DNA of 64,000 nucleotides from positions 14,361 to 78,360 of the forward strand of contig JACFOI010000003.1 in assembly GCA_019454415.1 (NCBI GenBank), written 5' to 3'. Shown here one piece after another: positions 5,264 to 47,347 of the stretch. The translations under genes were made by a program, and so were the position numbers. Origin of the DNA: Patescibacteria group bacterium (GTDB lineage Bacteria; Patescibacteriota; Microgenomatia; UBA1400; PJMF01). Below the pieces are notes generated by a model. That model was not told the origin of the DNA, did not search any database, and saw only the letters and a program-made list of their open reading frames with translations. The stretch's first letter is position 1; every line of letters starts with the position of its first letter.

Positions 5264-5299
5264 ATCATTCTCAGTACAGATTCAGGTACTTACTCTGCC

Positions 5300-5967: not shown

Positions 5968-6046
5968 ACGCGTAGTATATTGTACCAATTCCTCGAGAAG
6001 AGTCAAATTAAAGATATCTTGAACCTTCCGCACAAACTGCCATTAC

Positions 6047-8003: not shown

Positions 8004-8077
8004 AGGGGCAGGTCGGTGTTAGATAATACACTCCCAAATATAGAACGGTCGGCACTTGGAATACAAGGTTTGTTCCT

Positions 8078-10546: not shown

Positions 10547-10554
10547 GGGGAATC

Positions 10555-11790: not shown

Positions 11791-11882
11791 GAGCAGACTT
11801 GAGCCACGTATTGTTTAGTCAACCTTTTCTATAAGTCTTACAAATCTTATCAAAAACAGACAATTGAATACACTTCAGGCCG

Positions 11883-14375: not shown

Positions 14376-14381
14376 CTTCGT

Positions 14382-15295: not shown

Positions 15296-15297
15296 GA

Positions 15298-24306: not shown

Positions 24307-24370
24307 TTTTCTGCCTGACAACAATCCTATTCTTGGTCTCTAGTTGAACTGTGTGTACAATGGAAATCGA

Positions 24371-29469: not shown

Positions 29470-30584
29470 GATTGCACTGATCGATGTGTTGCAAGTCTTT
29501 GTATGTTCTGAGCAAAAAGTTCGGGCCGAAACTTTTGTGCCTGTCTAAAACAATCTATCATTTTTAGTGGTCTTTTTTGAAGCTTCTGGATCACTTTCAT
29601 GAGTGACTCTACGGTACGTTCTTCAAAGAAATACCCTGTTTCCCCTTCCTTCACCGTTTCCACCACTCCACCACTCTTATATGCCAAGACTGGGACGCCA
29701 GCTGATTGTGCTTCGACCGGGACAATTCCAAAATCTTCGTCCTCTGCAGCATACAGGAGGGCAATAGCAGACCGATACACTCTACCAAGTTTTTTCTCTG
29801 GAACAAATCCCAAAAACGTTACGGACGGTCCGGCCTCTTTCTCAAGCTCTTTTCGCAGATAACCATCACCGATCACTCTCAGCGGTAAACCAAGCTGGGT
29901 ACATGCATCAACAATCAGCTTGATACCCTTCTGTTTGACTAAGCGACTGTGTGCCACGAAGTACTTTGGCTCTTTACGCGTTTTCTTCAGAACAGGATAC
30001 GATGAAAACAGCAGCTCAACCGGTGGTGGAACAACCAGCGCGGGACGTTTATAAATCTTTTTAACTCGCTGCTGGACTTCCCGTGAGTTGACGATGATCA
30101 CATCCGGCTGTTTTCCTGCTTGCTGGTCGATCTGCCGAAGCCAACTCAGAAACGTTCTCCATATGCCAATCCGCGTAAACATCGAAAGCTCATGAGCGTA
30201 GCCGTACAAGAAACGTGGCGGAGTGTGCAAATAGCAGATATGCAGCGCGTCAGGGCGTTTCTTCACCAGCTTTGAGTTATAAGAGTGGCTTGATGTGAAG
30301 ATCAGATCGTATGCCTGAAGATCAAGCCTGGCAAAGTACCGCCAAGCTAACGGCTTCAGTAATGAAAAGTACTGTTGGAGGTTTGCTAGCCAAGGCAAAC
30401 TTTGCAAAGGGGAACATCGCCAATCATATTTTCCAAACTTTTGGTCGATCTGTGGGTTAGCCCGATTGATGAAGAAGGTAAAAAGGTCAGCATCAGGGTA
30501 GAGTTTGATTAACGTCTCAAGAACCTTCTCCGAGCCGCCAAACTCAAGCAAATTATCTTGAACTATAGCAACTTTTTTCTTCAT
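29466..30584 (-). CDS. GT4-family glycosyltransferase
   Basis: EDFGIVPVEAQSAGVPVLA motif. ATGA-type coupling with the upstream gene. Confidence 0.75.
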   Translation of the reverse strand: MKKKVAIVQDNLLEFGGSEKVLETLIKLYPDADLFTFFINRANPQIDQKFGKYDWRCSPLQSLPWLANLQQYFSLLKPLAWRYFARLDLQAYDLIFTSSHSYNSKLVKKRPDALHICYLHTPPRFLYGYAHELSMFTRIGIWRTFLSWLRQIDQQAGKQPDVIIVNSREVQQRVKKIYKRPALVVPPPVELLFSSYPVLKKTRKEPKYFVAHSRLVKQKGIKLIVDACTQLGLPLRVIGDGYLRKELEKEAGPSVTFLGFVPEKKLGRVYRSAIALLYAAEDEDFGIVPVEAQSAGVPVLAYKSGGVVETVKEGETGYFFEERTVESLMKVIQKLQKRPLKMIDCFRQAQKFRPELFAQNIQRLATHRSVQS

Positions 30585-31591
30585 AATGCCGGAATCGTTG
30601 TATTGTGATACGTACGGAAGTTATAAGGTGCCAACAGGGTATCAAATCTTACGTCGTTGTACCCGCGTAAGGTTATCTTTCTGTATTCCAGTAGTCGTGG
30701 TAGCTGCCATACCGTCTCTCCCCAGATTCTCGGATAGGTCAGGATTCCGCAACTCCACGAACCATAGATCAACACCCAAGCTTGCACCAGTAAGATATTC
30801 AGGACATTTCGAAGTATCTCCCTACCGGGCCAGCAGCAAATCAGTACCCATAGAATATTTCTGTAGGTTTGATAGAGAGCGAAAGTATTGCGCCGGCCGC
30901 CGGAACTGACTGAGCCGTGGTGATACGCAATAAGTTGCTCTGCTTTTTTGATCTCTCCACTACTCATCAGGATCCTGATACTCAGATCAACATCTTCGAG
31001 GTAGTAGTAGTAGATCGGATTAAAAAAGTAGCCATACCTCTCAATGAGCTTTTCCACAAACTCCCACCGTAGCAGCATACAGCCGGCAGTTGCCAGTGTC
31101 GTCGGAATCTTCCGATCACGACAGTTTTTGGCATATCCTGACCGGAAATACTCAACGCCAAAGACGTCAATCTGGGTTGGATCTGCTGCTTCCAGCATCA
31201 CTGGCGCATAGACTGCTGGTTGTCGCTTGGAACGACTCTTCTCTTCTTCTAGTGCAAGCTGCTCAAAAAAGTTCTCTGCTATCCATGCATCGTCATTGAG
31301 CAAAAGCAGCCAACCTGAGTGATCCATACGTACTTTGGGCAACAGAAAACTCACTGCAGTGTTATTGAGATCTGCAAAGCCGGAATTGGGAGGAGCTTGG
31401 ATAAACCGAACATGTTTAAACTCGTTTTTGAATGTTCTTGAAGGCTGTGAGGTAGAGACGACACAGATCGTGATCTGCCAATGGGAGCGTTTCTTTTGTT
31501 GCTCTATGCTCGCGATTGCCTGCCGAAGGAAAGGTCGCTGAGCCATTTTCAATGTAGAAGGAATAATGACTGTAACGTGGAGATCAGTCAT
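30581..31591 (-). CDS. GT2-family glycosyltransferase
   Basis: VTVIIPS... N-terminal GT-A region, DD-like acidic motifs. Confidence 0.65.
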   Translation of the reverse strand: MTDLHVTVIIPSTLKMAQRPFLRQAIASIEQQKKRSHWQITICVVSTSQPSRTFKNEFKHVRFIQAPPNSGFADLNNTAVSFLLPKVRMDHSGWLLLLNDDAWIAENFFEQLALEEEKSRSKRQPAVYAPVMLEAADPTQIDVFGVEYFRSGYAKNCRDRKIPTTLATAGCMLLRWEFVEKLIERYGYFFNPIYYYYLEDVDLSIRILMSSGEIKKAEQLIAYHHGSVSSGGRRNTFALYQTYRNILWVLICCWPGREILRNVLNILLVQAWVLIYGSWSCGILTYPRIWGETVWQLPRLLEYRKITLRGYNDVRFDTLLAPYNFRTYHNTTIPAL

Positions 31592-31603
31592 AATAGGTAT
31601 CGT

Positions 31604-33832
31604 ATGTTTACTGCTGTTGCAGAGAGAAAACAGCTTTTCTTTTTTACGCTTTTTTTCTCTGCGTGTTATTTCTTGCTATTGTTTTTGACAGAGGGGTTTT
31701 ACTCTCTATGGATTACACCAGCCCTCTTGCTATTGTACGGTGTTACTGCTTGGTACCTTCTCTTCAGAGAAAAGACAACAGTTCGTCAGCTTGATACTAG
31801 AGTCGCGATCGGCGGAGCAGTCGTGCTATTGGTACTACTGGCTCTTACTCCGTGGAGCCTCTCAATGCCAGCTAGCATCTCGCGGTGGACAACTTTAGCC
31901 CTGGGAGGTATCACTTTCCTCTTCTTTTTTACCACGCCTATTCTACAAAAACTTTCTCTCCGAACTCTTTTTACTAGCATGATTGTGCTCCATGCCCTCT
32001 TCGTGCTATTGGCACTCTTTGTGTTTGTTATTCCGGGATTGGGCGACTTCCTGCCCAGTGAGAATCTATTGAGCTTCACTGTCGGACACAATCATTCCTA
32101 CATTTTGTATCTGATCTCCCTTCCCCTGTGTTTATACTTCAGTACGCAGAGTAAAAGAAGTTGGGTGTGGCTTCTCTTAAGCGGTGTGTTCATCTTTGGA
32201 ATCATCCTCTCTTTCAGTCGGGTAGGACTCTTTTTACTCTTGATAGAGTTGATTTACTTTGTCGTCGTTCACCTTCACGGACAGCGCCTCGCACTTCTGA
32301 AACATCTGAGAACTCTGGCACTGTTATGCAGTATCTTGGTGATGATATATGGCGGATTGTTGTTCTTGCTCTCATTTTTTCCGCAACTGAGCTATGGCAC
32401 AAACTGTATTGTTCCTTTCTGGAAAGCCCAGTTCTGTAAAAACTTTGGAGCAGAGAGTCGTCCTCACTACTGGCAACAAGCACTGCAGGGTATTAAAACA
32501 AGTCCAATCTTGGGTACTGGAGGTGGAACGTTTAGCATCCTCTCTTTCCGCTACCGTCAGCATCAGGATGAGTACTCAGCCTACCCGCACAACGAGTATC
32601 TGCAGCTGATCGTGGAGTATGGCGTTGCAGGGTGGCTGATCGTGGCAGCGATAGCGATCAGCCTGCGCTTCATGTGGCAAAGGTGGCACCAAGTCTCCGA
32701 TCTGGCACGCCTGCTTATTTTTCTGAGTACGGTAACCGCGTTTGACTCGCTTTTCAACTTTAACTGGAGTTTTGTAGGCATCTTTGTGTTGGAGTCTCTT
32801 CTGTGGGCCGTGACGCTCAAAACAATCCACCTGGAGTTAGCTTCCAAAACTAAGAAAAGTAGCAGTCCACGCCTCATTTTTTTGGCTCTTCTGAGTGTAG
32901 GAGTGCCTCTCTGTTGGTTGTCTGCACGGTTTCTGTCAGCTGAGCTCCTGCTCAATCAACGCGACGAAGAGTATCTGCGACGTTTTCCTTATATTTCAGG
33001 GCGGGCCGAGCGAGCGTACTTTGACTCACAGACTTCTTCCGGCACTAAGGAGATGATTGAGGATCTGTATCGGAACAACGAAACCCTTGCTTGGCTGGCT
33101 GCGAGCAGGGCGGTAAGTCCACATACACAGCGGGATCTTTACCAGCGGTACTTAGAGCTCAATCCGATGAATCATGAGGCTCGGGTCCGTTTGATGATCG
33201 CTGCTACTCAAACCAATGATCCAAAGATTGTACTTACTCAACTGAACTGGCTATTGGATTTTTATTCTGTGACCGAAAAGCATACGATCAGGGACATTGA
33301 GCCCCAGTATTTGGAACGATTGATCAACTATGCGAACTCACTCAGTGCCGAAAATTCTGCTACGGCAGTGGACGTTACGCTGCTGGCATATCAATTTGAA
33401 CCTTGGCGGATAAATGAAGTGCAAACGATTTTTCTTCTTCAGCCACAAAAGTTTCCTCAGCAAGATGTTGCCAAGTTGCTCGATTCACTTGCTCCCTACC
33501 GACTCCAGTTTTATCTTAGTTCTCTCAATCCGTGGACCTGGGAGAAGATGCTTACTGCAGGCACCCATGAACGCTGGGCGGATATGAATCTCTATCTCAA
33601 ACTTATCTTGGTCTATACAGATTGGGATCCGCATGTTGTCTGGGCTACTATTTCTCGACTAATCACCAGTAAGTTAAAGGATCCTGAGTTCTCCGATTCT
33701 GCCCCAAAAAAGAAGGCTTTCTTAGATGCCTGGAGAAACAGTCTTGAAACCCTGGAAAAATTTGGTACTGTTGGCGATAAGCCTCTCGACACTAGTGGAT
33801 GGTCAGAGCAGATTGAGTCGTTTGCCCATTAA
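31604..33832 (+). CDS. Wzy_C (O-antigen ligase/PglL-like) polytopic membrane protein fused to C-terminal TPR-like domain
   Basis: Roughly 12 TMs. Signature loop YPHNEYLQLIVEYGVAGW. C-terminal roughly 300 aa soluble helical repeats (TPR-like). Confidence 0.75.
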   Translation: MFTAVAERKQLFFFTLFFSACYFLLLFLTEGFYSLWITPALLLLYGVTAWYLLFREKTTVRQLDTRVAIGGAVVLLVLLALTPWSLSMPASISRWTTLALGGITFLFFFTTPILQKLSLRTLFTSMIVLHALFVLLALFVFVIPGLGDFLPSENLLSFTVGHNHSYILYLISLPLCLYFSTQSKRSWVWLLLSGVFIFGIILSFSRVGLFLLLIELIYFVVVHLHGQRLALLKHLRTLALLCSILVMIYGGLLFLLSFFPQLSYGTNCIVPFWKAQFCKNFGAESRPHYWQQALQGIKTSPILGTGGGTFSILSFRYRQHQDEYSAYPHNEYLQLIVEYGVAGWLIVAAIAISLRFMWQRWHQVSDLARLLIFLSTVTAFDSLFNFNWSFVGIFVLESLLWAVTLKTIHLELASKTKKSSSPRLIFLALLSVGVPLCWLSARFLSAELLLNQRDEEYLRRFPYISGRAERAYFDSQTSSGTKEMIEDLYRNNETLAWLAASRAVSPHTQRDLYQRYLELNPMNHEARVRLMIAATQTNDPKIVLTQLNWLLDFYSVTEKHTIRDIEPQYLERLINYANSLSAENSATAVDVTLLAYQFEPWRINEVQTIFLLQPQKFPQQDVAKLLDSLAPYRLQFYLSSLNPWTWEKMLTAGTHERWADMNLYLKLILVYTDWDPHVVWATISRLITSKLKDPEFSDSAPKKKAFLDAWRNSLETLEKFGTVGDKPLDTSGWSEQIESFAH

Positions 33833-33848
33833 CGCCTCCAACAAAAAC

Positions 33849-34706
33849 ATGGCGAGTGCAAAGTATCCTTTTTTTTCTAGCTACCCACGTGTGTGCGGAG
33901 TAGTTTACGCGCTAAAGAGTGACACAATTCCGGATAAACGCATCTCTTTGGCACTGGCATCCGGAAATGAATGGGAGGCGCTACGTATAGCTTTGGAAAC
34001 TACGGCTCGAAGACATCGGTATATTGCGCTGTGTCTCTATTTTTTGACTAAGCGGCTGCATTGGCTTCCACCGTTGGCCGTGACGTTGTGGTTTTGCCGA
34101 ATAATTGGACCCGCTAGCTCCTGGTTCGAGTACCTACAACGGAGTTCAACTCGGCCATCATTGTTAACGGCGACTTCCATCTACACCCAACTTTTCTCTA
34201 AAAACAAAAAAGAAACTGGCTATATCCTCGACTTGGGTTGCGGACTAGGGCAGCTTCCCCAACGATTCCCCCGGCAACCTCATCGCCGTTGGATCTGCGT
34301 AGATAAAAACTTCTTCTCACTCTTTTTAGCCCAGCTTTATCACCGTCGCTCTGACATCATCTATGCGTGTGCTGACGTTGAGATTCAACATCTCTTCCCG
34401 AAGAGCTTCTTCTCTTCAGCTGTTTGTATTGACTGCTTCGACTTTATCTACCAGAAAGACAGCTTCCTGAGATATATCGCTCAAATCTTGAAAAAAGGTG
34501 GGACGTTTGTGATGATGAACATTCACGAGGAGCAGCCGGGAACTGAGCTCTGGGGATATGGGATCAATCGCACAGAAGTCAAAAAACTTTTGTTGGCCGA
34601 CTTCCAGAAAATTACTTGGCATGACCTGAACTTCCCTCTCCATAGTCAAAAACGTTCTTTGAGGGAAGTAGATTCGATGAGGTATAGCTTTGTAGCGTAC
34701 AAGTAA
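33849..34706 (+). CDS. class I SAM-dependent methyltransferase
   Basis: ILDLGCGLGQLP motif I. Start ATG 33849 after Wzy stop. Confidence 0.6.
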   Translation: MASAKYPFFSSYPRVCGVVYALKSDTIPDKRISLALASGNEWEALRIALETTARRHRYIALCLYFLTKRLHWLPPLAVTLWFCRIIGPASSWFEYLQRSSTRPSLLTATSIYTQLFSKNKKETGYILDLGCGLGQLPQRFPRQPHRRWICVDKNFFSLFLAQLYHRRSDIIYACADVEIQHLFPKSFFSSAVCIDCFDFIYQKDSFLRYIAQILKKGGTFVMMNIHEEQPGTELWGYGINRTEVKKLLLADFQKITWHDLNFPLHSQKRSLREVDSMRYSFVAYK

Positions 34707-34730
34707 AACTACCGTATTGATGAGTGTTTT

Positions 34731-35846
34731 ATGAAGATATTAGCGATTCTCGAACGCAATCCCGGAGGAGAGTACGCGGCTGCTCGAGCCCTCTTACATG
34801 CGTTAGAAGATAACGACTGTCAAATCGAGCTCGAAGAGCTATCTCCGCTTCAAACAACCGGTCTTTTTTCATACTTTGGCTGGATTCTTTTTTCGGTCTT
34901 CCGATCAGCGAAGTTGGCGGCGCACTACAAGGAAGGACGAGATGTTTATACGACTACCTATGTAGCTGCCCTTGGCATTTTACTACTGCGTCCCTTCACC
35001 CATCAAAAGCTGAGCTTTCATTATCACGGGAGTCGGATTCCGGCACCAGCTGGGAGAGACTGGCCGGCACTTCGTAAGTTGACACAGTCAGTTAAACACA
35101 CTGTGGTTATGCAGTTACACCGGATTGTCTTTTCAAAAACTGACCTACTGATAGTCCCCTCTGCCAAAATCCTTGAACAACTTCACACCGAGTTCCCCAC
35201 ACTAACCGATCGGGTGGCTCTTATTCCGAATGGTGTTGATACTCAATTTTTCCAACCGATCTCAAATGCAGAAAGACAGTCACTCCGTAAGCAGTACCGC
35301 ATTCCCAACGGCTCGTTTGTCTGTTTAGTCGTTTCTCGGGTCAACGCCGAAAAAGGCTTGATTGAATCCGTAGAGCTTGTCCGGGCCATCCAACGTTTCA
35401 GCAGGCATCGAGTTTTGGCGGTTTTTGCAGTTCCCAGTCAAGGGAACGATAGCCAGTATCTGCACCAGTTCTTGACGCATCTGCGTTCTTCGGAGGTTCC
35501 GCATCTGATTTTTGAAGATCATCAACAGCTGAATCAGCTTTACCAACTCAGTAACTGTGTTTTAAGTTGTTCACGACGGGAGGTATTTCCCCTTGTTCTG
35601 CTGGAAGCTGCTGCCTGTGGTACCCCATACTTTGCTGAGCCGAACGGCGCAATAGAGTATTATCTTCAACAGATCGATCCACAGCTAGTTCTGCCTCAGT
35701 CTCAGCAAGCTGCTGCCCGAAGAGTATTGGAAGAGACTCATCAAAATAAACTATCGGAGAAACTACGCGCTTTCGCTGTTTCTCACACTTGGCAGGCAAG
35801 TGCTGTCCGCCTTATGCAAAAACTGGAACAGCTCACAATCAGATGA
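34731..35846 (+). CDS. GT4-family glycosyltransferase
   Basis: GT-B length. VFPLVLLEAAACGTPYFAEPNGA motif. Confidence 0.7.
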   Translation: MKILAILERNPGGEYAAARALLHALEDNDCQIELEELSPLQTTGLFSYFGWILFSVFRSAKLAAHYKEGRDVYTTTYVAALGILLLRPFTHQKLSFHYHGSRIPAPAGRDWPALRKLTQSVKHTVVMQLHRIVFSKTDLLIVPSAKILEQLHTEFPTLTDRVALIPNGVDTQFFQPISNAERQSLRKQYRIPNGSFVCLVVSRVNAEKGLIESVELVRAIQRFSRHRVLAVFAVPSQGNDSQYLHQFLTHLRSSEVPHLIFEDHQQLNQLYQLSNCVLSCSRREVFPLVLLEAAACGTPYFAEPNGAIEYYLQQIDPQLVLPQSQQAAARRVLEETHQNKLSEKLRAFAVSHTWQASAVRLMQKLEQLTIR

Positions 35847-38782
35847 ACAAAAAGACACCGCAACGCTTTACGATCAAGAACATATTCAGAAAAAGATACC
35901 TTGTACTCGTTGTGTTGATCGCAGGTCTGATTGCGATCTTAAGTCTGGCTCAACCACCGGACTGGTGGCAGTTCTCTTTGACCGAACAAATCACCCAACA
36001 ACCAATCTTCAACAAAAAAAATATCTTACTTGCCACCAATCACGGCACAGTACTGGCAGTCCATCAGCGAACTGGCCAAGTAATCTGGGAACTCAAACAT
36101 GAAAAAGATATTGCTTCACAGCCATTCCTGAAAAATGACAAAGTCTATACATCCTATATCGACGGGACAGTCGTCGCAATAAACCCTGATACTGGGGAGT
36201 TCATTTGGCAGTATAAGCTGCCTGATTCTAAGCAAGTACATACTGGCCTACTTTACTCAGAAACTACACTTATTTTCGGCGATTCCGGGGGAATGGTACA
36301 CGGCTTGTCCCTGTCTGACGGTCGCGAAAAATGGTCCCTTCAAACTCCTAATCCGGACTCTGTGGACCAACTCCTGACTCCCAATGGCATAGTTTGGTTT
36401 GGCTCCGTCATTATGGATCGCTCCAAGCTGTATGTTATCCGCACTCATGGCTACATTGCCGAGATCAATCCTAATACTGGCAAACTGATTTGGGAGCAGA
36501 AGGTTCCTGGAACAGTCATTGGAGAGCCGTTGCTTACTCGTTCCAGTCTTTTTATTAGTACGGATCAAGTTCCGCTTGTTTCTCTCTCCCGAAGAAACGG
36601 AGAACTCTACACTGCACCGGAACCGCAAAACGCAACAACTATCTTTTGTCAGGTGAGTTATACCCAAAAAGGGATTCTGACTGATCTGTCAGAACGGGTG
36701 GATCTCAATATTCCCAGTATCCTTCCAGTCTATGAACAAGGACGTGGTGAGCAGATTATTCAGGTCGACAAATCCGGGAAGGTAGTTTCTTACGATCGGG
36801 CAACGCTGCGTCCCAAATGGCAAGTTGAGCTCAACTATGAACCTAAACGTTGTTTCTTTGACCAAGAGTACGGGTTATACCTTGGGTCTGCTACCGGCAC
36901 ACTTACGAAAGTCGACGTCAGAGAACAAAGAGTGCGCTGGCAGCAGCAACTGCCAAGTCGCCTTCTGTCTATTTTCTCAGTCTATAGACACAAGTTTGTC
37001 GAAAGGGAAAGTCAGAAAAAGTACTACTACACCAACTTTGTGCTTGTCAGTGACGACCAGGAAAACTTCTTCAGGATTAATCCTCAGACTGGTGAAGTGA
37101 TGTGGAGTTTCAAGATTGACGGCTCAATGTACGTGCCGCCTGTTCTCCATTTCGGACATCTGTTTATTGTGACAACTAATGGAGGACTGTATCGCCTCGA
37201 TCCCTTCACCGGAAAACCGGACCTTGGTCGACTTAGTCCGAAAGTCCAAGCCACACCCGTCAGCCAAACAGTCAAAGAGGGTGAAGTTTTTGAGCTGAAG
37301 GTGAAGGCTCCCTCTGATCGCTACAGTAATCCCTATACGGCAGTGGACTTAAGCGCGGAGTTTATTAACGTAGAAAACCGCAAGATCCAAGTACATGGAT
37401 TTTATTATGACAAGGGCGAGTGGCGAGTACGCTTTAATCCTCCCACTGATGGCAGGTGGCAGTGGACTCTTCATTGGAGAGATCCGTTTCAAAACAAGGA
37501 GTTGAGTGGCAGCTTTACGAGTGAAAGAAGCTATAGCGTACTTCAAGCAGACCCACAGACAGCAAAGTGGCTGACTAAAGACGGTAAAACAATTTTCCCG
37601 GTTGCGGGCATAAACGACTGCTTTGCCGACCTCAATCAAGACGGGTCACCCCTGAATGACTGGTTTACCCAGGATGGCTCTCTGAAAATCGCCACCACTT
37701 CGGGAGAGATTCCGCAAAAACTTAGCTTTAATTCACAAGTCGTCCCGATGGAATCTTACTTAGACACCTACCGGAACGGCTTTAACTTGTTCCGCCAGAA
37801 TGTGAGTAACTGTTCTCCACCGCTTTACTATGCAGAGAACTTTTTGTACTCCAAGTATCTTTCGCATGAAGGAAAACAGTTCGACGCACTCAGTCAGCAG
37901 CTTTTCCAAAGAGGGTACTCAGTTTGGTTCACCATGTTCAGCTTCTCTTTACCCTTTGATGGAGGTGTTCGGTATCCCGACGAACGATTTGCTTTGGAAA
38001 ATTACATTAAGTACGTAGTAGCGAGGTTTGGTGCTTATGTGGATGTTTGGGAAATCAGCAACGAGGCAGTTGCCAGTGATGAATATGTCCGGACTATTGC
38101 CCAGTTGATCGAAAAGAATGACCCATATAAAAGACTCATCAGTGTCAGCTGGGAAAAACCCCAACTGGACAGCATTACTCTAATCGCTCCACACTGGTAC
38201 CAGTCTGAGAATGACAACGAGTCTGACCTAGCGACGATCACTCAAATTAATAAGTTCAGCGAGTATAAAAAACCTGTTGTATTCGGTGAACATGGGAACC
38301 AGGAAAGAAACTGGGATCCGAGTTCGGCACATCGGATGAGGGTACGGACGTGGACAGCATTCTTTCATCAAGCAGGATTGGTATTTTGGAATCAGTCCAG
38401 CACCAAGGACTACTATAATCCTACTTTCCAGAACAGTAATATTTACCTGGGTGAAGAGGAACGGAACTACCAGTCAGTCTTTCTTCAGTTGACTCAGGGA
38501 CTACCTGTTAGTCTTGTTCCCCAGCCAGATCCTCCCCGAGGTAGTGGAATCCGTCCCTATGCACTGAAGAATGAGACGCTGCTTCTGTACTATATTTTCA
38601 ACTCGAATGTGGAGGAAAACTCCACTACGGTTATTACTAATACCCTCGCCGGGAGAGCAAAAGCAGAATGGTTTGACACGAAGACTGGTGAGCTTCTCCG
38701 TGCTGAAGAAGTCGATCCTGAAGCAACGTTAACCTCCCCGCCATTTACTCGTGATATCTTTGTCAAGCTCTCAGTGCTTTAG
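35843..38782 (+). CDS. membrane-anchored PQQ-like beta-propeller fused to GH5-like (TIM-barrel) glycoside hydrolase domain
   Basis: ATGA overlap start. N-terminal TM. Repeated GxVxAxxxxTGxxxW PQQ-type blades (residues roughly 80-480). C-terminal VWEISNEA (GH5 NEP-like acid/base) and FGEHG segments. Confidence 0.55.
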   Translation: MNKKTPQRFTIKNIFRKRYLVLVVLIAGLIAILSLAQPPDWWQFSLTEQITQQPIFNKKNILLATNHGTVLAVHQRTGQVIWELKHEKDIASQPFLKNDKVYTSYIDGTVVAINPDTGEFIWQYKLPDSKQVHTGLLYSETTLIFGDSGGMVHGLSLSDGREKWSLQTPNPDSVDQLLTPNGIVWFGSVIMDRSKLYVIRTHGYIAEINPNTGKLIWEQKVPGTVIGEPLLTRSSLFISTDQVPLVSLSRRNGELYTAPEPQNATTIFCQVSYTQKGILTDLSERVDLNIPSILPVYEQGRGEQIIQVDKSGKVVSYDRATLRPKWQVELNYEPKRCFFDQEYGLYLGSATGTLTKVDVREQRVRWQQQLPSRLLSIFSVYRHKFVERESQKKYYYTNFVLVSDDQENFFRINPQTGEVMWSFKIDGSMYVPPVLHFGHLFIVTTNGGLYRLDPFTGKPDLGRLSPKVQATPVSQTVKEGEVFELKVKAPSDRYSNPYTAVDLSAEFINVENRKIQVHGFYYDKGEWRVRFNPPTDGRWQWTLHWRDPFQNKELSGSFTSERSYSVLQADPQTAKWLTKDGKTIFPVAGINDCFADLNQDGSPLNDWFTQDGSLKIATTSGEIPQKLSFNSQVVPMESYLDTYRNGFNLFRQNVSNCSPPLYYAENFLYSKYLSHEGKQFDALSQQLFQRGYSVWFTMFSFSLPFDGGVRYPDERFALENYIKYVVARFGAYVDVWEISNEAVASDEYVRTIAQLIEKNDPYKRLISVSWEKPQLDSITLIAPHWYQSENDNESDLATITQINKFSEYKKPVVFGEHGNQERNWDPSSAHRMRVRTWTAFFHQAGLVFWNQSSTKDYYNPTFQNSNIYLGEEERNYQSVFLQLTQGLPVSLVPQPDPPRGSGIRPYALKNETLLLYYIFNSNVEENSTTVITNTLAGRAKAEWFDTKTGELLRAEEVDPEATLTSPPFTRDIFVKLSVL

Positions 38783-39978
38783 CTTGAGCTTTTGTGAATG
38801 TGTTCAAAGTTCAGAATCCCCAAGAAGAGGGTTGAGAAAAATACCTGAATTCCCAGGATGACAAAGGTGATGCCGGGAATGAAAACTCTCATTGTACTTT
38901 CAGGATTAAGATCACCGAACCCTTGCTTAGACCACAAAAGCAGTGTCCATGAACAGAAAATAAGACCAACTGTGCAGATTGCGCCACCTAGCAGCATCAT
39001 CACTTCTAAGTTCGTTCTATCGAACCTCCCGACTACCGGGGGTGACTGAACTGGCAGGTGAATCCGTTTGGCGAAGACATCGATGCAGAGCGACCAGTGG
39101 AAAAGTTGGTAACCAATATTCAATAGGGCGCCCAGAACCAGCATTGTGTGAATGCCTAAAGAGATATGCCCCAGTTCCAGGCTTTCCAACACCATGAAAA
39201 TCAAAACCGCTAAAGAGAGAATCAGAATAATAAGGGCTGGGAAAAAAAAGATCCAGTTTGGTGCAAAAAGCATCAAGAACCGGAGATGTCTCCAGCCGTC
39301 TCGAAACGTTCTGATGTGCGACTTGCGCTTTCTACCGTCCTTTCGATAGACGACCGGGACTTCTTGAATGTTGAGATGGAGTAGTGCTGCCCGAACAATC
39401 ATTTCAGAGGCAAACTCCATTCCCACGCACTGCAAATTCAGGCTTTTTACTACTGATTTACGCAGAGCACGAATGCCGGAGTGGTAATCTCCCAGATGAG
39501 TTCCAAAAAAGAGATTAGCCGTCCAGGTCAAAATTGGGTTGCCAATATAATAATGCAGCCAAGGCATTGCCCCTTTTTGTACCCCTCCTTTGAATCTGTT
39601 ACCGATAACCAAATCTGCGCCAGCTTGCAGCTTTTTTAAGAAAGGAGTGAGATGTCTAAGATCGTAGCTGAGATCCGAATCCGCAATGATGATGTACTCA
39701 CCCTTTGCCGCCACGAGTCCTCTATAGATTGCTGCTCCGTACCCACGTTTGGACTCTGTCACGACCCGAGCTCCGGCCTTTTTTGCAACTGCAATTGACT
39801 CATCGGAACTGCCGTTGTCAACGACGATGACTTCTCCTCTTTTTCTCTCCAGCCATCGTTTTGCTTCCTTCACACACTTACCCACTGTTGCCGCTTCGTT
39901 GAGGCATGGAAGAACAATGCTAACCGTAAGTGCAGTCGGTACTTTAGCAGACACTCGTGTTCGTAGTTTTCTTGACAA
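38779..39978 (-). CDS. GT2 polyprenol-phosphate sugar synthase (DPM1/GtrB/ArnC-like) with C-terminal TM domain
   Basis: VSIVLPCLNEAATVGKCV...VVDNGSSDES...ADSDLSYD GT-A motifs, then about 4 TMs. Confidence 0.7.
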   Translation of the reverse strand: MSRKLRTRVSAKVPTALTVSIVLPCLNEAATVGKCVKEAKRWLERKRGEVIVVDNGSSDESIAVAKKAGARVVTESKRGYGAAIYRGLVAAKGEYIIIADSDLSYDLRHLTPFLKKLQAGADLVIGNRFKGGVQKGAMPWLHYYIGNPILTWTANLFFGTHLGDYHSGIRALRKSVVKSLNLQCVGMEFASEMIVRAALLHLNIQEVPVVYRKDGRKRKSHIRTFRDGWRHLRFLMLFAPNWIFFFPALIILILSLAVLIFMVLESLELGHISLGIHTMLVLGALLNIGYQLFHWSLCIDVFAKRIHLPVQSPPVVGRFDRTNLEVMMLLGGAICTVGLIFCSWTLLLWSKQGFGDLNPESTMRVFIPGITFVILGIQVFFSTLFLGILNFEHIHKSSS

Positions 39979-40014
39979 AGGTATTCCTATATAACTATAA
40001 GAAAGGGGATCAAA

Positions 40015-41811
40015 TTGTTCTCTTCTTTTGTTTTATATCGTTCTTATACCAAAATGCAACAAATAGTGACTGTAGCAAGAAGTGTTTTGAGCTGGGTTTG
40101 GAAAAATGGCCTCTTTCTGTCTCTGGCAGTAGCAGCTGCTGCACTGAAACTTTGGTTGCTTGATAGTCAGGATCTCACCTATCAGGGTTACAGCTTTCAT
40201 GATGAAATGCTGTTTGTTCGTCTGGCCCACAATATTATCGAAAGTGGGTGGCTGGGACCTTACGATAACTTAACCCTCGCTAAGGGGACTTTCCTTCCGC
40301 TTTTTTTAGTATTTAACTGGGCGCTCGGACTTCCCTTGTTGGTGACACAACAGCTATTGTACATTGCGGCTGTCACAGCAATCTCTTGGGCTATTCGCCC
40401 ACTGATTAAAAACCGTTTCTTATTACTCTTCTTGTTTATCATCTTACTGTTCCAACCGGCTTCCTTTGAGGGAGACTCTACTGCCAGAATTTTACGGTCT
40501 TCCATAGGAACCAGTTTGTCACTCTTTATCTTTGCCGGTTTTTTCAGACTTTGTCTGACTAAAATTCGTCAAGTGGAAGCAATTTGGTTGGGGAGCCTGA
40601 CTGGATTAGCTCTTGGACTGTTTTGGATAAATCGTGAAGATAACTTATGGATTCTGCCGGCTGTCGCCATTCTATTGGGTGGAAAGTGGGTGATAAGTTT
40701 TTTCCGCCATCAAATAAATAAACCTCTCTTTACTTTCAGTTCAGCCGTACTGTGCTGGGCAGTATTGCCTGTTTTTCTTGTTTCTCTCGTGAATGTGCAC
40801 TTCTATCAAATTTTCACAGTAACTGAGTTCCAGCACTTTGCATTCCCCGAAGCCTACGGGGCACTGTTGCGGGTTCGTCCGGCGCAGCGTTATCGGTATA
40901 TTCCGGTTACCCGCAGTACGCGTCAGATACTGTACAAGCTGAGTCCGGCTTTTAAGGAACTAGAAATTCCTTTGGAAGATCACTATGCCTCGGGATGGGC
41001 AGAAAATAGTGTTGACCTAACTGGTTTTAAGCCGCGGGAGAAACAGGTTGCCGGTGGATGGTGGATGTGGGCACTGCGGGATGCAGTCAATGCGGCCGGC
41101 TACGGTTCGTCCGGTGCTACGGCAGCTGCTTACTATATCCGGCTAACAAACGAGATAAATGCACTTTGTGACGACGGAACGCTGATCTGCACACCGCCTC
41201 ATAAAGTGATGACCCCTGTTCTTTCTGTCGATGATTACCGGCGGATCATTCCCGGCTTCTTTGAGTTGTGGATCGCGTATTTTTCGCGGCAACATCTCTC
41301 TGTTTACAACAGTCACTCTTCCGGAACAGAACTCGACGAGTATCTTTTCCGCAGTCTCACCCACGAGAAACTCTACCACAACGAAGACTATTATTTTGAT
41401 GATTGGAACCAGGCGACCCTGAAACAAAAACAGCTCTATGTCTTAGAGCAGCTGACGAGAAAGTACCAAACGTATGCTTTGCCCTTTGTTCTTCTCGGTA
41501 TTTTAAGCTATATCTACATTGCTATCAGGCGAGACCAGTATGCATGGGTGCTGCTTGCTATTCCCGCTTCAACTCTTTTTCTTAACTTAGTAGTAACCAT
41601 CATTCACTTCACCTCTTTTTGGGCATTCGGGAACGTCTACTTAAGTCCAATGTACCCATTATTTTTGATTTTCTCTTTCCTGAGTATTCTACGGGTACCC
41701 AGTCATTTACGCAGAGAGTGGGAGTTCTCACCGTTCAATAAAACCAAACCGCGGATCCTGAAGAAGGGTTTTAGTGATCTCGTCCGCGTAGATCCGGTGA
41801 GCCAGAACTGA
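40015..41811 (+). CDS. GT-C fold membrane glycosyltransferase (PMT_2/ArnT-like)
   Basis: Polytopic. First-loop acidic motif FHDEMLFVRLAHNI (DE motif of the GT39/GT83 family). Large C-terminal periplasmic domain. Confidence 0.55.
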   Translation: MFSSFVLYRSYTKMQQIVTVARSVLSWVWKNGLFLSLAVAAAALKLWLLDSQDLTYQGYSFHDEMLFVRLAHNIIESGWLGPYDNLTLAKGTFLPLFLVFNWALGLPLLVTQQLLYIAAVTAISWAIRPLIKNRFLLLFLFIILLFQPASFEGDSTARILRSSIGTSLSLFIFAGFFRLCLTKIRQVEAIWLGSLTGLALGLFWINREDNLWILPAVAILLGGKWVISFFRHQINKPLFTFSSAVLCWAVLPVFLVSLVNVHFYQIFTVTEFQHFAFPEAYGALLRVRPAQRYRYIPVTRSTRQILYKLSPAFKELEIPLEDHYASGWAENSVDLTGFKPREKQVAGGWWMWALRDAVNAAGYGSSGATAAAYYIRLTNEINALCDDGTLICTPPHKVMTPVLSVDDYRRIIPGFFELWIAYFSRQHLSVYNSHSSGTELDEYLFRSLTHEKLYHNEDYYFDDWNQATLKQKQLYVLEQLTRKYQTYALPFVLLGILSYIYIAIRRDQYAWVLLAIPASTLFLNLVVTIIHFTSFWAFGNVYLSPMYPLFLIFSFLSILRVPSHLRREWEFSPFNKTKPRILKKGFSDLVRVDPVSQN

Positions 41812-42698: not shown

Positions 42699-43511
42699 TT
42701 ACAAACCTTCAATATCATCAATTGAAGGATAAATGTTGTAACGCTTTTGGTTAATAGGGATCTGGGAGCCAATATGAACTCTATAGTTATCGAACATAAC
42801 AACTTCGTTCTCATTAACCACACGTACTGTCAGATCGGCCCAGATCACGACATCCTTGTATATAGGATGTTTCCTGATGTGTAAGTTCCCGGAGCTATCC
42901 TGAGTAATTTGCGTTGCTGGACTCACCTCTACCTTAGTAATTTTGACTAGCTGCTTGCCCAGTGAGTTAGTAACTGTATCTCCCACGTGGATCTCCTTTG
43001 CCAAGGTGGGAGCAATACTCCCCAAAAAGGTTTTGACATGAATCACCTTCTCCGTTGCATTTACTTGAGCAGTCCCGGGGACATCAGTCACGATTCCGTC
43101 AAACGTAACATCATGAAGATTGAACCTCATGGGAGTTCCATACATTAAGTTTTTCCCGCGGGCAGAGTACAGTTTAGTCCGGGTGTCGTAGGTGGCCCGG
43201 AGCCGGATATCCAAATAAACAACTTTGTTCTCCGGAGTAATTGAGTAGCTTTCTACATTTACAATCTCGGCGATTGTCCGTCCTACCACGTCCCTTTCTA
43301 GATCACCGACATGGAATCGCCATGAGTAATCATTTCTGGGGGTGTCATGTGCAGTCAGTACTTCCTGATTCGTCACTTTAAAACGAATAGTAATGTAGGT
43401 GGACTTCCGATAGAAGAAAAAGAAGAAACCGACCAGCACTACTACTGCTGCACTGAAGATGAGTGTGTCTACCCAGTGTAGCTTGCGTAACTTTTTCAGA
43501 ATTTTTTTCAT
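42699..43511 (-). CDS. N-terminally anchored uncharacterized protein (paralog of 52371-53252)
   Basis: Basic N-terminus + TM (AAVVVLVGFFFFFYRK) + beta-rich domain. Clear paralogy to 52371-53252. Confidence 0.45.
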   Translation of the reverse strand: MKKILKKLRKLHWVDTLIFSAAVVVLVGFFFFFYRKSTYITIRFKVTNQEVLTAHDTPRNDYSWRFHVGDLERDVVGRTIAEIVNVESYSITPENKVVYLDIRLRATYDTRTKLYSARGKNLMYGTPMRFNLHDVTFDGIVTDVPGTAQVNATEKVIHVKTFLGSIAPTLAKEIHVGDTVTNSLGKQLVKITKVEVSPATQITQDSSGNLHIRKHPIYKDVVIWADLTVRVVNENEVVMFDNYRVHIGSQIPINQKRYNIYPSIDDIEGL

Positions 43512-45064
43512 GCACTCCTCTTTCCTGCAGACAGATAATACCAGAACGCACCAAAACCAAGAACTAAACCCAAAAATGGGAACTCAACAATACCAATATG
43601 CGGTAAGAGTGTCCAGAAGACGAGGGCGACAAGCAGTCCACTGAGAAAGGTCAGTCTGTAGAACTGGGGTTGGCCCCTTTGAGCTGGGTTGACGATGCAG
43701 TACCTGGCTAACCAGAACAACGGTAACAAAAAAATCAGCAGTCCGATCAGTCCGATCTCCATCCACAACTGGATATATGCCAGGTGAACGACTGCGGGAA
43801 AGACGGTCATCACCCCATCCGGGAAAAGCCGTTGAAGGACATACTCATTGGTGCCTATTCCGTATCCGATAAATGGGTTGGCAATGATCGCCTCTCTAGC
43901 TTCATTGACCATCCTGACCCGGATAGCTAAACCTGCACCTTGATAACCGGCATTCACACTCAACAAAATTCTGGGAATGATCCCAAATGCACTTAATGCA
44001 AATGCAACGACTCCATAGGCTAAGATTCTTCGGCGGCCGATTTTGCGTAACACTACCAAGATTCTTTTCTTATATACCACTCCGCAGAGGAAAAGTAGCA
44101 AGACTGCTCCGATCAATACTGATCGGCTCTGTGTAAGTAAAACCACAAACAGACCAGCCAGACCCGTTCCGATAAGTGGGACTGATTTTTTTTCGATACC
44201 ATAGGGCAAAATCACCGACGACAAGAGTGCCGAAACAAAGGCTAACTGATTGTGGAACATGAAGGTTCCCATCACTCGGAACACTGCATTGTTTTCATCT
44301 AGTCCTGTGGCAAAGCTGCCCGAGCTATTTGCCTCAAACGGAAGTCCGGCACTTCGTTGAAACCACAGCTGCAGCACGCTGACAAAAAACTGTGTGCAGA
44401 TCATAGCCGTGAGTGTCAGAACAAAAAATGAAAGAAACTTTGGGTACTTGACCAGCCCAAAGCAGATTCCCAGCGCCACAAAGTACATCATGCTGTACTG
44501 GAAAAGCCAAACTATCGACAGGGCTGGGAACGGAGAATACACCGTAATGCCATATAGGCAGTAACCAACAAAAAGCAACCATACCAATGTAATTGCACCC
44601 ATTACCACTAACAGTCGCTGGGGGATCTTCCGGAAGTTTTTCAGTAGATCTCTTATCAGAGCTGCAGCTGCCAGCACAAAAAAGAAGCTGGCCATGTGGA
44701 AAAAATAAGCAATGGAGTAACCCTCATAGTATTGAGGTTCCAAAATTGCATTCCCTCGAATTACTTCTACGTCATATCCCTTATTAGGGTGAACAAACTG
44801 CAAGGTAAATATATAGGTCAGAAAAAAGCCCAAGAAAACACTTTTCAGATTTCTTGATAGTAGAATTGCTACAATAAGATATAGTAGGAAAAACTGTCGA
44901 ATGCCGTCGATCAGACCAGTAGAAGACACAGCCACTGTGAGTGCGAACAGAACAGGAGTAAAAACGAATGGCCGATCCCAAATGCTATGTACTCGTTCGA
45001 GGCAGGAACGCCCTGCCGTACGTAGAACGCTGTTTGCGGTCAATACTTTGCCAAACATACTCAA
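43508..45064 (-). CDS. Wzy_C-like (O-antigen polymerase/ligase family) polytopic membrane protein
   Basis: About 12 TMs. Loop AVVHLAYIQLWMEIGLIG similar to the Wzy_C signature. 5' end overlaps divergent GT2, so the start is uncertain. Confidence 0.55.
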   Translation of the reverse strand: MSMFGKVLTANSVLRTAGRSCLERVHSIWDRPFVFTPVLFALTVAVSSTGLIDGIRQFFLLYLIVAILLSRNLKSVFLGFFLTYIFTLQFVHPNKGYDVEVIRGNAILEPQYYEGYSIAYFFHMASFFFVLAAAALIRDLLKNFRKIPQRLLVVMGAITLVWLLFVGYCLYGITVYSPFPALSIVWLFQYSMMYFVALGICFGLVKYPKFLSFFVLTLTAMICTQFFVSVLQLWFQRSAGLPFEANSSGSFATGLDENNAVFRVMGTFMFHNQLAFVSALLSSVILPYGIEKKSVPLIGTGLAGLFVVLLTQSRSVLIGAVLLLFLCGVVYKKRILVVLRKIGRRRILAYGVVAFALSAFGIIPRILLSVNAGYQGAGLAIRVRMVNEAREAIIANPFIGYGIGTNEYVLQRLFPDGVMTVFPAVVHLAYIQLWMEIGLIGLLIFLLPLFWLARYCIVNPAQRGQPQFYRLTFLSGLLVALVFWTLLPHIGIVEFPFLGLVLGFGAFWYYLSAGKRSA

Positions 45065-45786: not shown

Positions 45787-47347
45787 CATTCACTGCTCCA
45801 AGCTTCTCAGTCTGCCAGTACTGGGCAACCTACTTTATCGGATGCAGCTTCTGATGGTGAAAGCAGGTCTCTCCACACAGTATTGGATCTCCCGAAAGGA
45901 TGTTCCCCTGCGCGGACAGCTTCTGACCGAGATCGAAAAACGGGCAGTGATCATGTTTTGTTCGGCGTGGCAGCTCGGTCGCCAATTGGAAAATTTACAT
46001 GGAAAGTATGTCTTTGATTACACAGGACCTCATCCCAAACACTTGTCTCTGACTGAGCTTTATAACCTGGAATGGGCGTTAATTCTGGCCCAAAGCGTTA
46101 CTTCCCAGAGCATCAAGAAACTGGGAAACCTTCTCCCCCAAAGCTATCCTTTTTGGAGGCCGTATATTCTTTCAGTCCATCAGCAGCTGGACGTTCAGTG
46201 TGACTTTGTCCAACAGACCCTCAATGAACTTTTAGCCCAGGGTAATACAGTCATTCTGTTTAGCCATGTTCAACAGCCTGATACAGTGAAACAAGAACTT
46301 CGTAAGCATCGTCGTCTGATCTATTTCTCGAGTGTCTGTCCGTTGCGTACCTCTCTCTTGCCATTTCGACTGCAGAAGGATGTCCAGTCAGTGTGGGAGA
46401 GTATTGTTCGTCGAACCTTGTATCAGTATGCGCCACCTCAGCATCATCCGGTCTTGTGGTGTTTTGACCCTGATGACGCGAATATCTTACACTTTTGCCC
46501 TCCCCAGACCACGATTATTTTTGATTGTGTTGACTACTACACCAGTACCGACCAAGAGTTAAATAAGAGGGTCACTCGTGATCAACGCCGCTTGATAGAC
46601 GCCGCTGACCTGATGTTTGTGAACTCCAGAACTTTAAAGAAGCTCCACTCTAAACAACGAATGGATAACTTGTTGGTTCCTCAAGGCTTTGACCAACAAA
46701 CTTTTTTTGTGAATAGCAAAGGCAGGCGTTCAAAAACGTCGATTCGTTTCTTCCAGAAACTTAATCGCACCAAAACAAAGTATCGAGCAGTTGTGTCCTT
46801 CGCCGGGGCACTTTCCTATCGAGTCGACTATCCGATGCTCATAGATCTGATCAAACACTGTCCCAAGTATTTGTTTTGTTTACCGGAGACTGAACTTTCT
46901 TGGCCGACTGAAGATCAAGCTGTAGCTTGGCAGCAGCAGCTTCAGCACCTTAGGAAGCTACCGAATGTACTCTGGTTTCCCCGGCTGCAACGCAGTGAAG
47001 TGCGGGCACTTTTGGAAAAAACTACGGTCGGGTTGATCCCTTATGACACTTCCTTTGAGTTAAATCGTTACTGTTTCCCGATGAAGTTCTTCGAGTATCT
47101 GAGCATGGGCTTGCCTGTCCTTTCTACACCTATTCACGAGTTAAAGTACTATCCTCAGTTTGTCTCACTTGGAAAGAATAGTCTCGAACTACGCAAAAAG
47201 TTACACGTTTTAGTAAGAAAGCGAGTGACAAGTCAAACAAAAGAGGCCATGAAACAGTTGTGTTTAGAACACACATGGCAGAAAAAGATTGACGCAATTC
47301 TCTCTGCTATTGATCTCTATCAACGGCGGTACCACCGATTTGTGTAG
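45767..47347 (+). CDS. GT-B glycosyltransferase (GT4-like C-terminal domain), paralog of 49616-50872
   Basis: YCFPMKFFEYLSMGLPVLSTPIHELKY aligns with CCFPMKIMEYFFAQRPVVSTPIPSLLDY in the paralog. Confidence 0.55.
   Translation: MQRFRYNIHCSKLLSLPVLGNLLYRMQLLMVKAGLSTQYWISRKDVPLRGQLLTEIEKRAVIMFCSAWQLGRQLENLHGKYVFDYTGPHPKHLSLTELYNLEWALILAQSVTSQSIKKLGNLLPQSYPFWRPYILSVHQQLDVQCDFVQQTLNELLAQGNTVILFSHVQQPDTVKQELRKHRRLIYFSSVCPLRTSLLPFRLQKDVQSVWESIVRRTLYQYAPPQHHPVLWCFDPDDANILHFCPPQTTIIFDCVDYYTSTDQELNKRVTRDQRRLIDAADLMFVNSRTLKKLHSKQRMDNLLVPQGFDQQTFFVNSKGRRSKTSIRFFQKLNRTKTKYRAVVSFAGALSYRVDYPMLIDLIKHCPKYLFCLPETELSWPTEDQAVAWQQQLQHLRKLPNVLWFPRLQRSEVRALLEKTTVGLIPYDTSFELNRYCFPMKFFEYLSMGLPVLSTPIHELKYYPQFVSLGKNSLELRKKLHVLVRKRVTSQTKEAMKQLCLEHTWQKKIDAILSAIDLYQRRYHRFV

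Follow-up and report, generated by a model that had tools for sequence, protein, structure and literature searches.

The window (the whole stretch of DNA analysed here, 64,000 nucleotides from an uncultured Patescibacteria bacterium) carries a glycan island, as the initial annotation had reported: Pfam assigns a Bac_transf gene, GT4 and GT2 genes, four Wzy_C genes, a methyltransferase and a GDSL gene. Coordinates below are on the + strand unless stated. Within the island, a same-strand run begins with the gene for a Wzy_C membrane protein (31481..33832, 783 aa as listed; Pfam Wzy_C, 8e-17) and continues through a methyltransferase and a GT4 glycosyltransferase (34731..35846; Glycos_transf_1, 5e-18, and Glyco_transf_4) to the target gene (35843..38782, including the stop codon; delimited by the ORF list, Pfam and an AF2 model), an order that is kept in relatives. 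The 3' end of the target overlaps by 4 nt that of a convergent GT2 gene (38779..39978, - strand; Pfam GT2, 6.5e-28), whose product has a C-terminal membrane domain and resembles polyprenyl-phosphate hexose synthases, with matches to AglJ, dolichyl-P-hexose transferase and PpgS that all fall under their cut-offs; a homologue of this GT2 carries PF26629 (GT2_TM_C). No transporter or catabolic genes were found flanking the target gene in the window.

The target ORF is intact and, from the ATG at 35843, encodes 979 aa. The initial annotation had placed the start correctly and given the length as 997 aa, a figure at odds with its own start coordinate, since 997 aa would require the in-frame TTG at 35789. 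We prefer the ATG because all seven full-length homologues (7/7) measure 978-987 aa and because the identical NCBI protein, MBW7944005.1, is also 979 aa long. The reported coupling of this start to the GT4 gene can be read directly in the sequence (...cagATGAac) and in the ORF coordinates: the ATG of the target (35843-35845) and the TGA that closes ORF 34731-35846 (35844-35846) share an ATGA start/stop overlap (35843..35846), the arrangement of translational coupling. Adjacency of the GT4 and target genes is kept in loci L001-L004 and L006.

Domain architecture and topology

The protein comprises, in order, an N-terminal anchor, a propeller, a DUF5060 Ig-like domain, a (beta/alpha)8 barrel and a C-terminal beta-sandwich (full-length AF2 model: pLDDT 87.6, pTM 0.80). 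The domains recognized at the outset (a signal-anchor, a propeller of the PQQ/BamB type and a GH5-like TIM barrel in which NE forms an acid/base motif) were thus correctly read; the DUF5060 domain and the C-terminal beta-sandwich had been overlooked.

Several signals point to an extracytoplasmic location for all but the N-terminus. In a hydropathy scan of the whole protein the sole hydrophobic segment is aa 19-37 (35897..35953), YLVLVVLIAGLIAILSLAQ, a signal-anchor or uncleaved signal peptide that is covered by a modelled helix (aa 9-36) and preceded by a basic N-terminus (aa 1-18), a tail that is probably cytoplasmic. Among 61 fused relatives, 49 show a counterpart of this segment. The translation contains no lipobox, and no Cys lies close to where the hydrophobic segment ends.

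There follows an eight-bladed PQQ_2/BamB-type beta-propeller (aa ~40-457; 35960..37213), delimited by Pfam, Foldseek and eight G-x3-W repeats, with modelled strands at aa 43-452 and a low-confidence loop at aa 281-300. Both the PQQ_2 (PF13360) score (3e-42; 145.3 bits vs a cut-off of 27.6, in four matched stretches) and the eight-blade pattern place the protein in this repeat family; a PF01011 match is confined to aa 88-128. Foldseek aligned the propeller with Cake9/10 at a TM-score of 0.81-0.82 (normalised by target length) and with BamB at an E of about 1e-21. No polar residues are conserved family-wide in the propeller. Two more specific identities were considered and rejected. As a BamB orthologue the protein scores far under the cut-offs (TIGR03300, 132.3 bits vs 285.2; NF008351, 96.5 vs 423) and lacks a lipobox; its host probably possesses just one membrane, with neither an outer membrane nor Bam machinery. 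As a PQQ-dependent dehydrogenase it scores 52.9 vs 480 (TIGR03075) and 18.1 vs 833 (TIGR03074), and the propeller has no conserved polar site.

Directly before the barrel lies the DUF5060 Ig-like beta-sandwich (aa ~469-560, modelled strands 469-560; 37247..37522), which matches PF16586 over aa 481-544 (2e-16; 60.4 bits vs 27.2); in the alignments it corresponds to the N-domain of 4n0r and to that of 9gmj. The C-terminal beta-sandwich (aa ~900-979, modelled strands 903-978; 38540..38779) gave a weak Pfam match to Collagen_bind_2 and aligns with the C-domain of ManDH5.

The predicted catalytic barrel

The region of aa ~585-885 (37595..38497) is modelled as a (beta/alpha)8 barrel of the clan GH-A type (AlphaFold model of the C-module: pLDDT 92.6, pTM 0.92). 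The clan features are a barrel fold, an Asn-Glu after strand 4 and a Glu on strand 7, and model and alignment place all three here. Modelled strand 4 (aa 735-739) is followed immediately by N740-E741, within the translated motif VWEISNEA (aa 735-742; 38045..38068), and E816 lies inside strand 7 (aa 812-820), within FGEHGN (38282..38299). In the alignments N740-E741 correspond to N302-E303 of ManDH5, where E303 is the residue that the depositors mutated to E303Q, and E816 corresponds to the Glu of "LVGEFG" in ManDH5, which from its clan would be the ManDH5 nucleophile, and of "ICDEVG" in 4n0r. We therefore predict that E741 (nt 38063-38065) is the general acid/base and E816 (nt 38288-38290) the nucleophile.

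Across 157 homologues, a set that spans both fused and unfused forms, D681, N740, E741, H784, E816 and W849 are conserved in 100%, R651 in 99% and Y786 in 98%. Since N740 and E741 are invariant in 157/157, VWEISNEA is not a chance match. The initial annotation had made its reading depend on two catalytic glutamates in a TIM barrel, and both are located in the model and invariant among the relatives. The GH5 residue set consists of Arg (b2), His (b3), Asn-Glu (b4), His and Tyr (b6), Glu (b7) and Trp (b8); near the strand-3 position the sole strongly conserved residue in the target family is D681, which lies on the helix before strand 3 and is not His.

Structure comparison led to the families that had been named at the outset, GH5 and GH140, with ManDH5, BVU_0362, GH5 mannanases and the GH140 apiosidase as best matches. 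A profile of the target's family found ManDH5 at 9e-31 and the GH5 mannanases 3ZIZ and 9M20 at 1.4e-6 and 1.3e-4; PF00150 (GH5, Cellulase) is absent from the target's Pfam matches at E <= 1. Membership in GH140 was rejected, as PF13204 (DUF4038) reaches only 19.4 bits on the target, under the Pfam gathering threshold of 26.5 (E 9e-4, aa 718-841 only). The founding member of that family is the apiosidase BT_1012 (PDB 3KZS), and one catalytic position is occupied by Asp in 82% of the PF13204 members (PMC4032388), whereas the target family has an invariant Glu-Glu pair. Judged from the model and the conserved residues, the glycosidase is apparently intact.

Relatives, synteny and the likely substrate

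The initial annotation had called the fusion unusual. The fusion is real, and its rarity is relative only: propeller and glycosidase are joined in at least 61 clusters at 50% identity, and all fused matches with an informative taxon label are from Patescibacteria. In the nine fused genomic contexts examined, the gene always lies among glycosyltransferase and/or Wzy_C or other glycan-synthesis genes. In L001-L004 and L006 the whole cluster keeps its order at protein identities of 38-76%, except that L003 is missing the methyltransferase as well as the GT2/598-aa pair downstream. More distant fused relatives (25-38% identity) have GT and/or Wzy_C genes around them in L084, L086 and at the P0060 locus, and GT2-radical-SAM and ABC-transporter genes next to them in L085.

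In five relatives (P0043, P0099, P0059, P0060 and P0101) a GT2, GT4 or WecG domain forms a single polypeptide with the (TM)-propeller-DUF5060-barrel. Four of the five have exactly one hydrophobic segment between GT and propeller; P0099 has two, which would not give the simple topology. The fused GT domains come from three different families, and the GT4 one is 28% identical over 96 aa to the GT4 of the window, so that these fusions tie together protein classes and not orthologues.

The coupling to GT4, the conserved membership in a Wzy_C/GT cluster and the fusion to GTs in relatives make the cluster's own glycan the most likely substrate, and we consider it somewhat better than an even chance that the target is an extracytoplasmic retaining glycanase or transglycosylase that acts on this glycan. 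The role suggested in the initial annotation (that such an enzyme could trim, remodel or anchor the polymer) is strengthened by the conserved synteny and by the GT-propeller-glycosidase fusions.

The target could instead be a nutrient- or host-directed surface glycanase, whose propeller would bind a foreign surface or polysaccharide while the GH5-like module degrades glycans of the environment or of host cells, beta-mannans for example, to serve uptake or attachment, its position in the cluster being incidental. Since Patescibacteria often live as episymbionts or scavengers, foreign glycans are a conceivable target for a surface glycanase, and the closest solved relatives (ManDH5, the GH5 mannanases and the GH140 apiosidase) are degradative. 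Unfused family members are widespread in Planctomycetota, Acidobacteriota and Chloroflexota, phyla that degrade polysaccharides, and a type IX secretion sorting domain occurs in two of them (P0019 and P0022). The genes immediately next to five unfused relatives, ten in all, comprise no GT but do comprise a sugar symporter, a xylose-isomerase-like protein and a GH127, although the contrast with the fused contexts comes from a small sample (nine fused, five unfused). The fused forms, however, stay in GT/Wzy_C clusters from 84% to about 25% identity, the target start is translationally coupled to GT4, it is flanked by no transporter or catabolic gene, and covalent fusion to cytoplasmic GTs, as in five relatives, would be difficult to reconcile with scavenging. 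We thus regard a foreign substrate as unlikely, at roughly one chance in a handful.

Proposed function and comparison with known systems

On the most likely reading, the target is a surface protein of type-II topology (N-in, C-out), either membrane-anchored or secreted. Outside the membrane it would present a non-catalytic eight-bladed propeller and, behind it, a glycosidase module with the three domains of the ManDH5/BVU_0362 type. The barrel would use the retaining double-displacement mechanism of clan GH-A, with E741 as acid/base and E816 as nucleophile, and, whether by endo or exo action, the polymer would be cleaved, sized, released or transglycosylated at the outer face of the membrane, as with PslG, BcsZ and ExoK. 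The propeller may serve as a spacer, or it may offer a surface to which the glycan or partner proteins bind.

By analogy with the fungal GH72 Gas/Gel enzymes, which are glucanosyltransferases, the enzyme might be a transglycosylase or ligase and not a hydrolase, moving a chain to a wall polymer, a protein or a growing chain and so anchoring or cross-linking the product; we think this improbable. More speculative still, and a long shot in our estimation, would be a dedicated Patescibacteria-wide step of extracytoplasmic glycan assembly, tied to a cytoplasmic GT, in which the retaining barrel, as a transglycosylase, would determine the size of the glycan and either attach or cross-link it to the envelope. 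The tie to the GT is suggested by the translational coupling in the window and by the covalent GT-TM-propeller-glycosidase fusions in relatives; to our knowledge, a membrane-spanning synthesis-and-processing unit of GT and propeller-glycosidase has no described counterpart. That the protein is a non-catalytic binder or scaffold, with a lectin-like barrel and the propeller as a protein-interaction hub for an export or assembly complex, is very hard to credit: BamB-type propellers are scaffolds, this one lacks a conserved polar site and the Pfam catalytic-domain models match weakly, but R651, N740, E741, H784, Y786, E816 and W849 are 98-100% conserved in the 157 sequences, as expected of active enzymes, and inactivated homologues typically lose one glutamate.

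The Patescibacteria (CPR) are abundant and mostly uncultured bacteria with reduced genomes, whose cell-surface chemistry is scarcely known. A conserved surface glycosidase in their glycan clusters, sometimes fused to a GT, would offer an expressible handle on how the envelope or attachment surface is shaped. The present database names (NCBI: "PQQ-binding-like beta-propeller repeat protein" for the target; JGI: "BamB" for relatives) both overlook an apparently intact ManDH5/DUF5060-type glycosidase and can be corrected, and for carbohydrate-enzyme classification a propeller-fused branch the size of the one described above joins a family with one recently crystallised member.

That member, ManDH5 of Dictyoglomus thermophilum (PDB 9GMJ, 9GPA, 9GPC and others), is a DUF5060-domain enzyme that its depositors call a "GH5 beta-mannanase," its properties being taken here from PDB titles alone. 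The target is homologous to the ManDH5/BVU_0362 type over the whole three-domain module; identity to ManDH5 is about 15-19%, so that substrate specificity is not transferable, and ManDH5, a free degradative enzyme of a thermophile, has neither membrane anchor nor propeller. BVU_0362 of Bacteroides vulgatus, known from the structural-genomics entry PDB 4N0R, is an uncharacterised "putative glycoside hydrolase" in which the domains are arranged as DUF5060-DUF4038-DUF5605; it likewise lacks propeller and anchor and has "DE" at the strand-7 position; it passes PF13204, whereas the target does not, and P0036, with the same Pfam set as BVU_0362, is only 24-27% identical. BamB and the other eight-bladed PQQ_2 propellers have repeat family and fold in common with the target.

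In terms of biological setting, the comparison is with the glycoside hydrolases found within exopolysaccharide biosynthesis operons: PslG (GH39, membrane-anchored, with an accessory beta-sandwich beside its clan GH-A barrel), BcsZ (GH8), PelA and ExoK. In these systems, as in the target, the hydrolase gene lies inside, and co-oriented with, the synthesis genes, and the protein begins with an anchor or signal and has its catalytic domain outside the cytoplasm; conserved membership in a biosynthetic cluster, a feature of the PslG/BcsZ-like class, is seen for the target in its coupling, its synteny and the GT fusions of its relatives. By analogy, the target may also share with these enzymes their proposed role, the processing of the cell's own polymer.

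Gene start and domain architecture

On balance, and at somewhat better than even confidence, we regard the propeller-glycosidase protein encoded at 35843-38782 (+ strand) as an extracytoplasmic retaining clan GH-A glycanase that processes the glycan of its own cluster, possibly acting as a transglycosylase too. It would cleave or otherwise process the product of the surrounding genes outside the cytoplasm, with the propeller serving as a spacer or binding platform.

The reading frame is uninterrupted on the + strand to a stop at 38782, and the ORF listing offers two in-frame starts: a TTG at 35789 (997 aa) and an ATG at 35843 (979 aa). The initial annotation combined the two: its start coordinate, 35843, is the ATG and stands, while its length, 997 aa, belongs to the TTG. 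We dropped the TTG in favor of the ATG because the seven full-length homologues range from 978 to 987 aa, each with a short, basic N-terminus like that of the target, and because NCBI holds an identical protein of 979 aa (MBW7944005.1). The coupling to a GT4 gene that had been described was found as such: the ATG overlaps the TGA of the directly preceding GT4 glycosyltransferase ORF (34731-35846) in ...cagATGAac at 35840-35848. A promoter and terminator scan of 30500-40200 gave counts not above those of shuffled sequence and was uninformative.

The sole hydrophobic segment in a hydropathy scan (aa 19-37) is preceded by a Lys/Arg-rich tail. The AlphaFold model of the full-length protein is confident (pLDDT 87.6, pTM 0.80) and consists of an N-terminal helix (aa 9-36), propeller strands (aa 43-452), an Ig-like sandwich (aa 469-560), a (beta/alpha)8 barrel (strands at 588-591, 649-653, 693-699, 735-739, 765-767, 784-786, 812-820, and 844-850) and a C-terminal sandwich (aa 903-978). 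The last three parts make up the C-module, which modelled by itself reached a pLDDT of 92.6 and a pTM of 0.92. Pfam identified PQQ_2 (3e-42) and DUF5060 (2e-16, aa 481-544), with weak, sub-threshold matches to Apiosidase (PF13204, aa 718-841) and Collagen_bind_2 (aa 917-960).

In an alignment of 68 fused proteins (those carrying both propeller and C-module), the propeller has eight G-x3-W repeats and no polar residue conserved family-wide, a pattern that points to a probable scaffold or binding part rather than a catalytic one. Two more specific identities were rejected: a BamB orthologue (scores far under the equivalog cut-offs, no lipobox, and an unsuitable host phylum) and a PQQ dehydrogenase (quinoprotein-dehydrogenase models far under cut-offs, and no conserved polar site in the propeller).

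Genomic setting in the window and in relatives

The source is recorded as "Patescibacteria group bacterium," and the wider neighborhood is ordinary chromosomal: two class A penicillin-binding proteins, GH18, LepA, MurJ, and PilN/PilO. Within it, the target is the final gene of a same-strand run of Wzy_C, methyltransferase, and GT4 genes; the island around this run carries Bac_transf, more GT4 and GT2 genes, four Wzy_C proteins, GDSL, and DUF4330, and the convergent gene downstream of the target resembles polyprenyl-phosphate hexose synthases. Gene order is kept in five relatives (loci L001, L002, L003, L004, and L006; 38-76% protein identity), except that in L003 the methyltransferase is absent, as is the GT2/598-aa pair downstream. 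At greater distance (25-38% identity), GT and/or Wzy_C genes again surround the fused relatives at loci L084, L086, and that of protein P0060; at L085, in the same identity range, the fused relative adjoins GT2-radical-SAM and ABC-transporter genes. Among the ten immediate neighbors of five unfused relatives (C-module without propeller), a small sample, no GT was found; these neighbors include a sodium:solute symporter, a xylose-isomerase-like protein, and GH127. A scavenging or host-directed glycanase might be read from such neighbors of the unfused forms; for the target, with its conserved place among glycan-synthesis genes, we consider it unlikely.

The convergent gene (38779-39978, - strand) is a GT2 with a C-terminal membrane domain, resembling AglJ, dolichyl-P-hexose transferase, and PpgS, all under cut-offs; it adjoins a polytopic membrane protein of 598 aa (40015-41811, + strand) that has no Pfam or NCBIfam match. 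The pair, kept in L001, L002, L004, and L006, looks like a polyprenyl-P-sugar synthase next to a candidate GT-C transferase that would glycosylate outside the cytoplasm. The four Wzy_C (PF04932) membrane proteins (31481-33832, 43508-45064, 47307-49616, and 50834-52387), two of which have long soluble tails and are about 770-780 aa long, are encoded directly downstream of the PilN/PilO genes (24344-25595). Wzy_C occurs in Wzy polymerases and WaaL ligases as well as in PglL/PilO protein O-oligosaccharyltransferases, so pilins or surface proteins might be what the island glycosylates, instead of or besides its making free polymer.

Several further features deserve mention. The listed methyltransferase ORF (33726-34706) overlaps the 3' end of a Wzy_C gene by about 100 nt and its homologues have 284 aa (L001), so its true start is probably further downstream. 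At 8078-14375, a GH18 chitinase-like gene lies between two class A penicillin-binding proteins of 822 and 830 aa, each combining transglycosylase and transpeptidase; such a trio is unusual in a reduced genome. At L085 (the locus of protein P0020), the propeller-glycosidase gene begins within the end of a short-chain dehydrogenase gene (overlap at 8001-8004). Its cluster has a GT2-radical-SAM fusion and an ABC-2 transporter besides several radical-SAM/SPASM proteins, and is of another kind than the Wzy_C type, one of glycan or peptide modification. Finally, L004 and L031 (CAZKNL010000020.1 and CAZPUR010000014.1) are titled "uncultured Pseudomonadales bacterium," labels that look wrong for these bins since L004 shares the gene order of the Patescibacteria window (37-66% protein identity).

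Spread of the architecture and glycosyltransferase fusions

With the full protein as query, a word-indexed search gave only seven relatives of full length; an exhaustive search with the C-module returned 867 representatives, 226 of them at E < 1e-30. A homologous N-terminal propeller is present in 61-65 of about 173 representative and homologue sequences with a detected C-module, and 49 of 61 propeller-bearing proteins have an N-terminal hydrophobic segment. Fused forms group with one another, the nearest neighbor being also fused for 60 of 67, and a rough NJ tree did not recover them as a single clade. In a scan of species-representative genomes, nine matches span propeller and C-module, the informative names among them being Patescibacteria UBA924, two Gottesmanbacteria, and Pacebacteria UBA1364; unfused forms occur in Planctomycetota, Acidobacteriota, Chloroflexota, and other phyla.

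Five representatives add an N-terminal GT: GT2 in P0043 and P0099, GT4 in P0059, and WecG/TagA in P0060 and P0101. Four have exactly one hydrophobic segment between GT and propeller (P0099 has two), which would place the GT in the cytoplasm and, across the membrane, the propeller and glycosidase outside. This predicted topology matches the likely N-in anchor of the target and its coupling to GT4. The GT4 domain of P0059 is only 28% identical to the window GT4 over 96 aa, so orthology is not demonstrated, and a homology search from P0060 yielded no further fusions, its results being swamped by WecG-only proteins.

Other arrangements occur as well. Locus L010 (Candidatus Gottesmanbacteria, CAWBPL010000002.1) has two paralogous propeller-glycosidase genes about 6 kb apart, at 5169-7241 (+) and 13064-15619 (-). 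Among relatives such as P0038 (1110 aa) and P0039 (1509 aa), some have two DUF5060 matches, and in P0039 there is a propeller as well as a large additional C-terminal region beyond the glycosidase, so the family includes further multi-module architectures.

Catalytic module and comparison with known systems

The C-module is of a kind already known, with a recently crystallised member. When 34 relatives were combined into a profile (alignment A1), it matched BVU_0362 (PDB 4N0R; 3.4e-39) and ManDH5 (9GMJ/9GPC; 9e-31), both across nearly the whole module; the deposited name of ManDH5 is "DUF5060 domain-containing protein," and its title calls it a GH5 beta-D-mannanase. Membership of GH140 was rejected at the Pfam cut-off. 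The VWEISNEA motif noticed initially is present at aa 735-742 (nt 38045-38068); N740-E741 align with N302-E303 of ManDH5, E303 being the residue changed in the E303Q crystal forms, and E816 aligns with the Glu of ManDH5 "LVGEFG." In the query taken together with six close homologues and 150 representatives of the exhaustive search, D681, N740, E741, H784, E816, and W849 are invariant, with R651 (99%) and Y786 (98%) nearly so. In the model, E741 comes immediately after strand 4 and E816 lies within strand 7, the "4/7" signature of clan GH-A, so the (beta/alpha)8 barrel holds two invariant, catalytic-type glutamates and the GH5-like TIM barrel first proposed survives.

A dedicated transglycosylase or ligase is a reading that we hold to be quite improbable. 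That the protein is a non-catalytic binder, as a binding-type propeller might suggest, is hardly credible given both glutamates.

We return to a glycanase acting on its own cluster's product. In the literature searched, we found no description of an anchor, PQQ_2 propeller, and DUF5060 glycosidase in combination; that this combination is confined to glycan clusters of Patescibacteria and is occasionally fused to a GT likewise appears undescribed there. The nearest relatives act on beta-mannosides, but the target is only 15-19% identical to them. A hydrolase within a polysaccharide synthesis cluster is a theme already known, and PslG, BcsZ, and ExoK would be functional analogues in the glycan-processing role proposed here.
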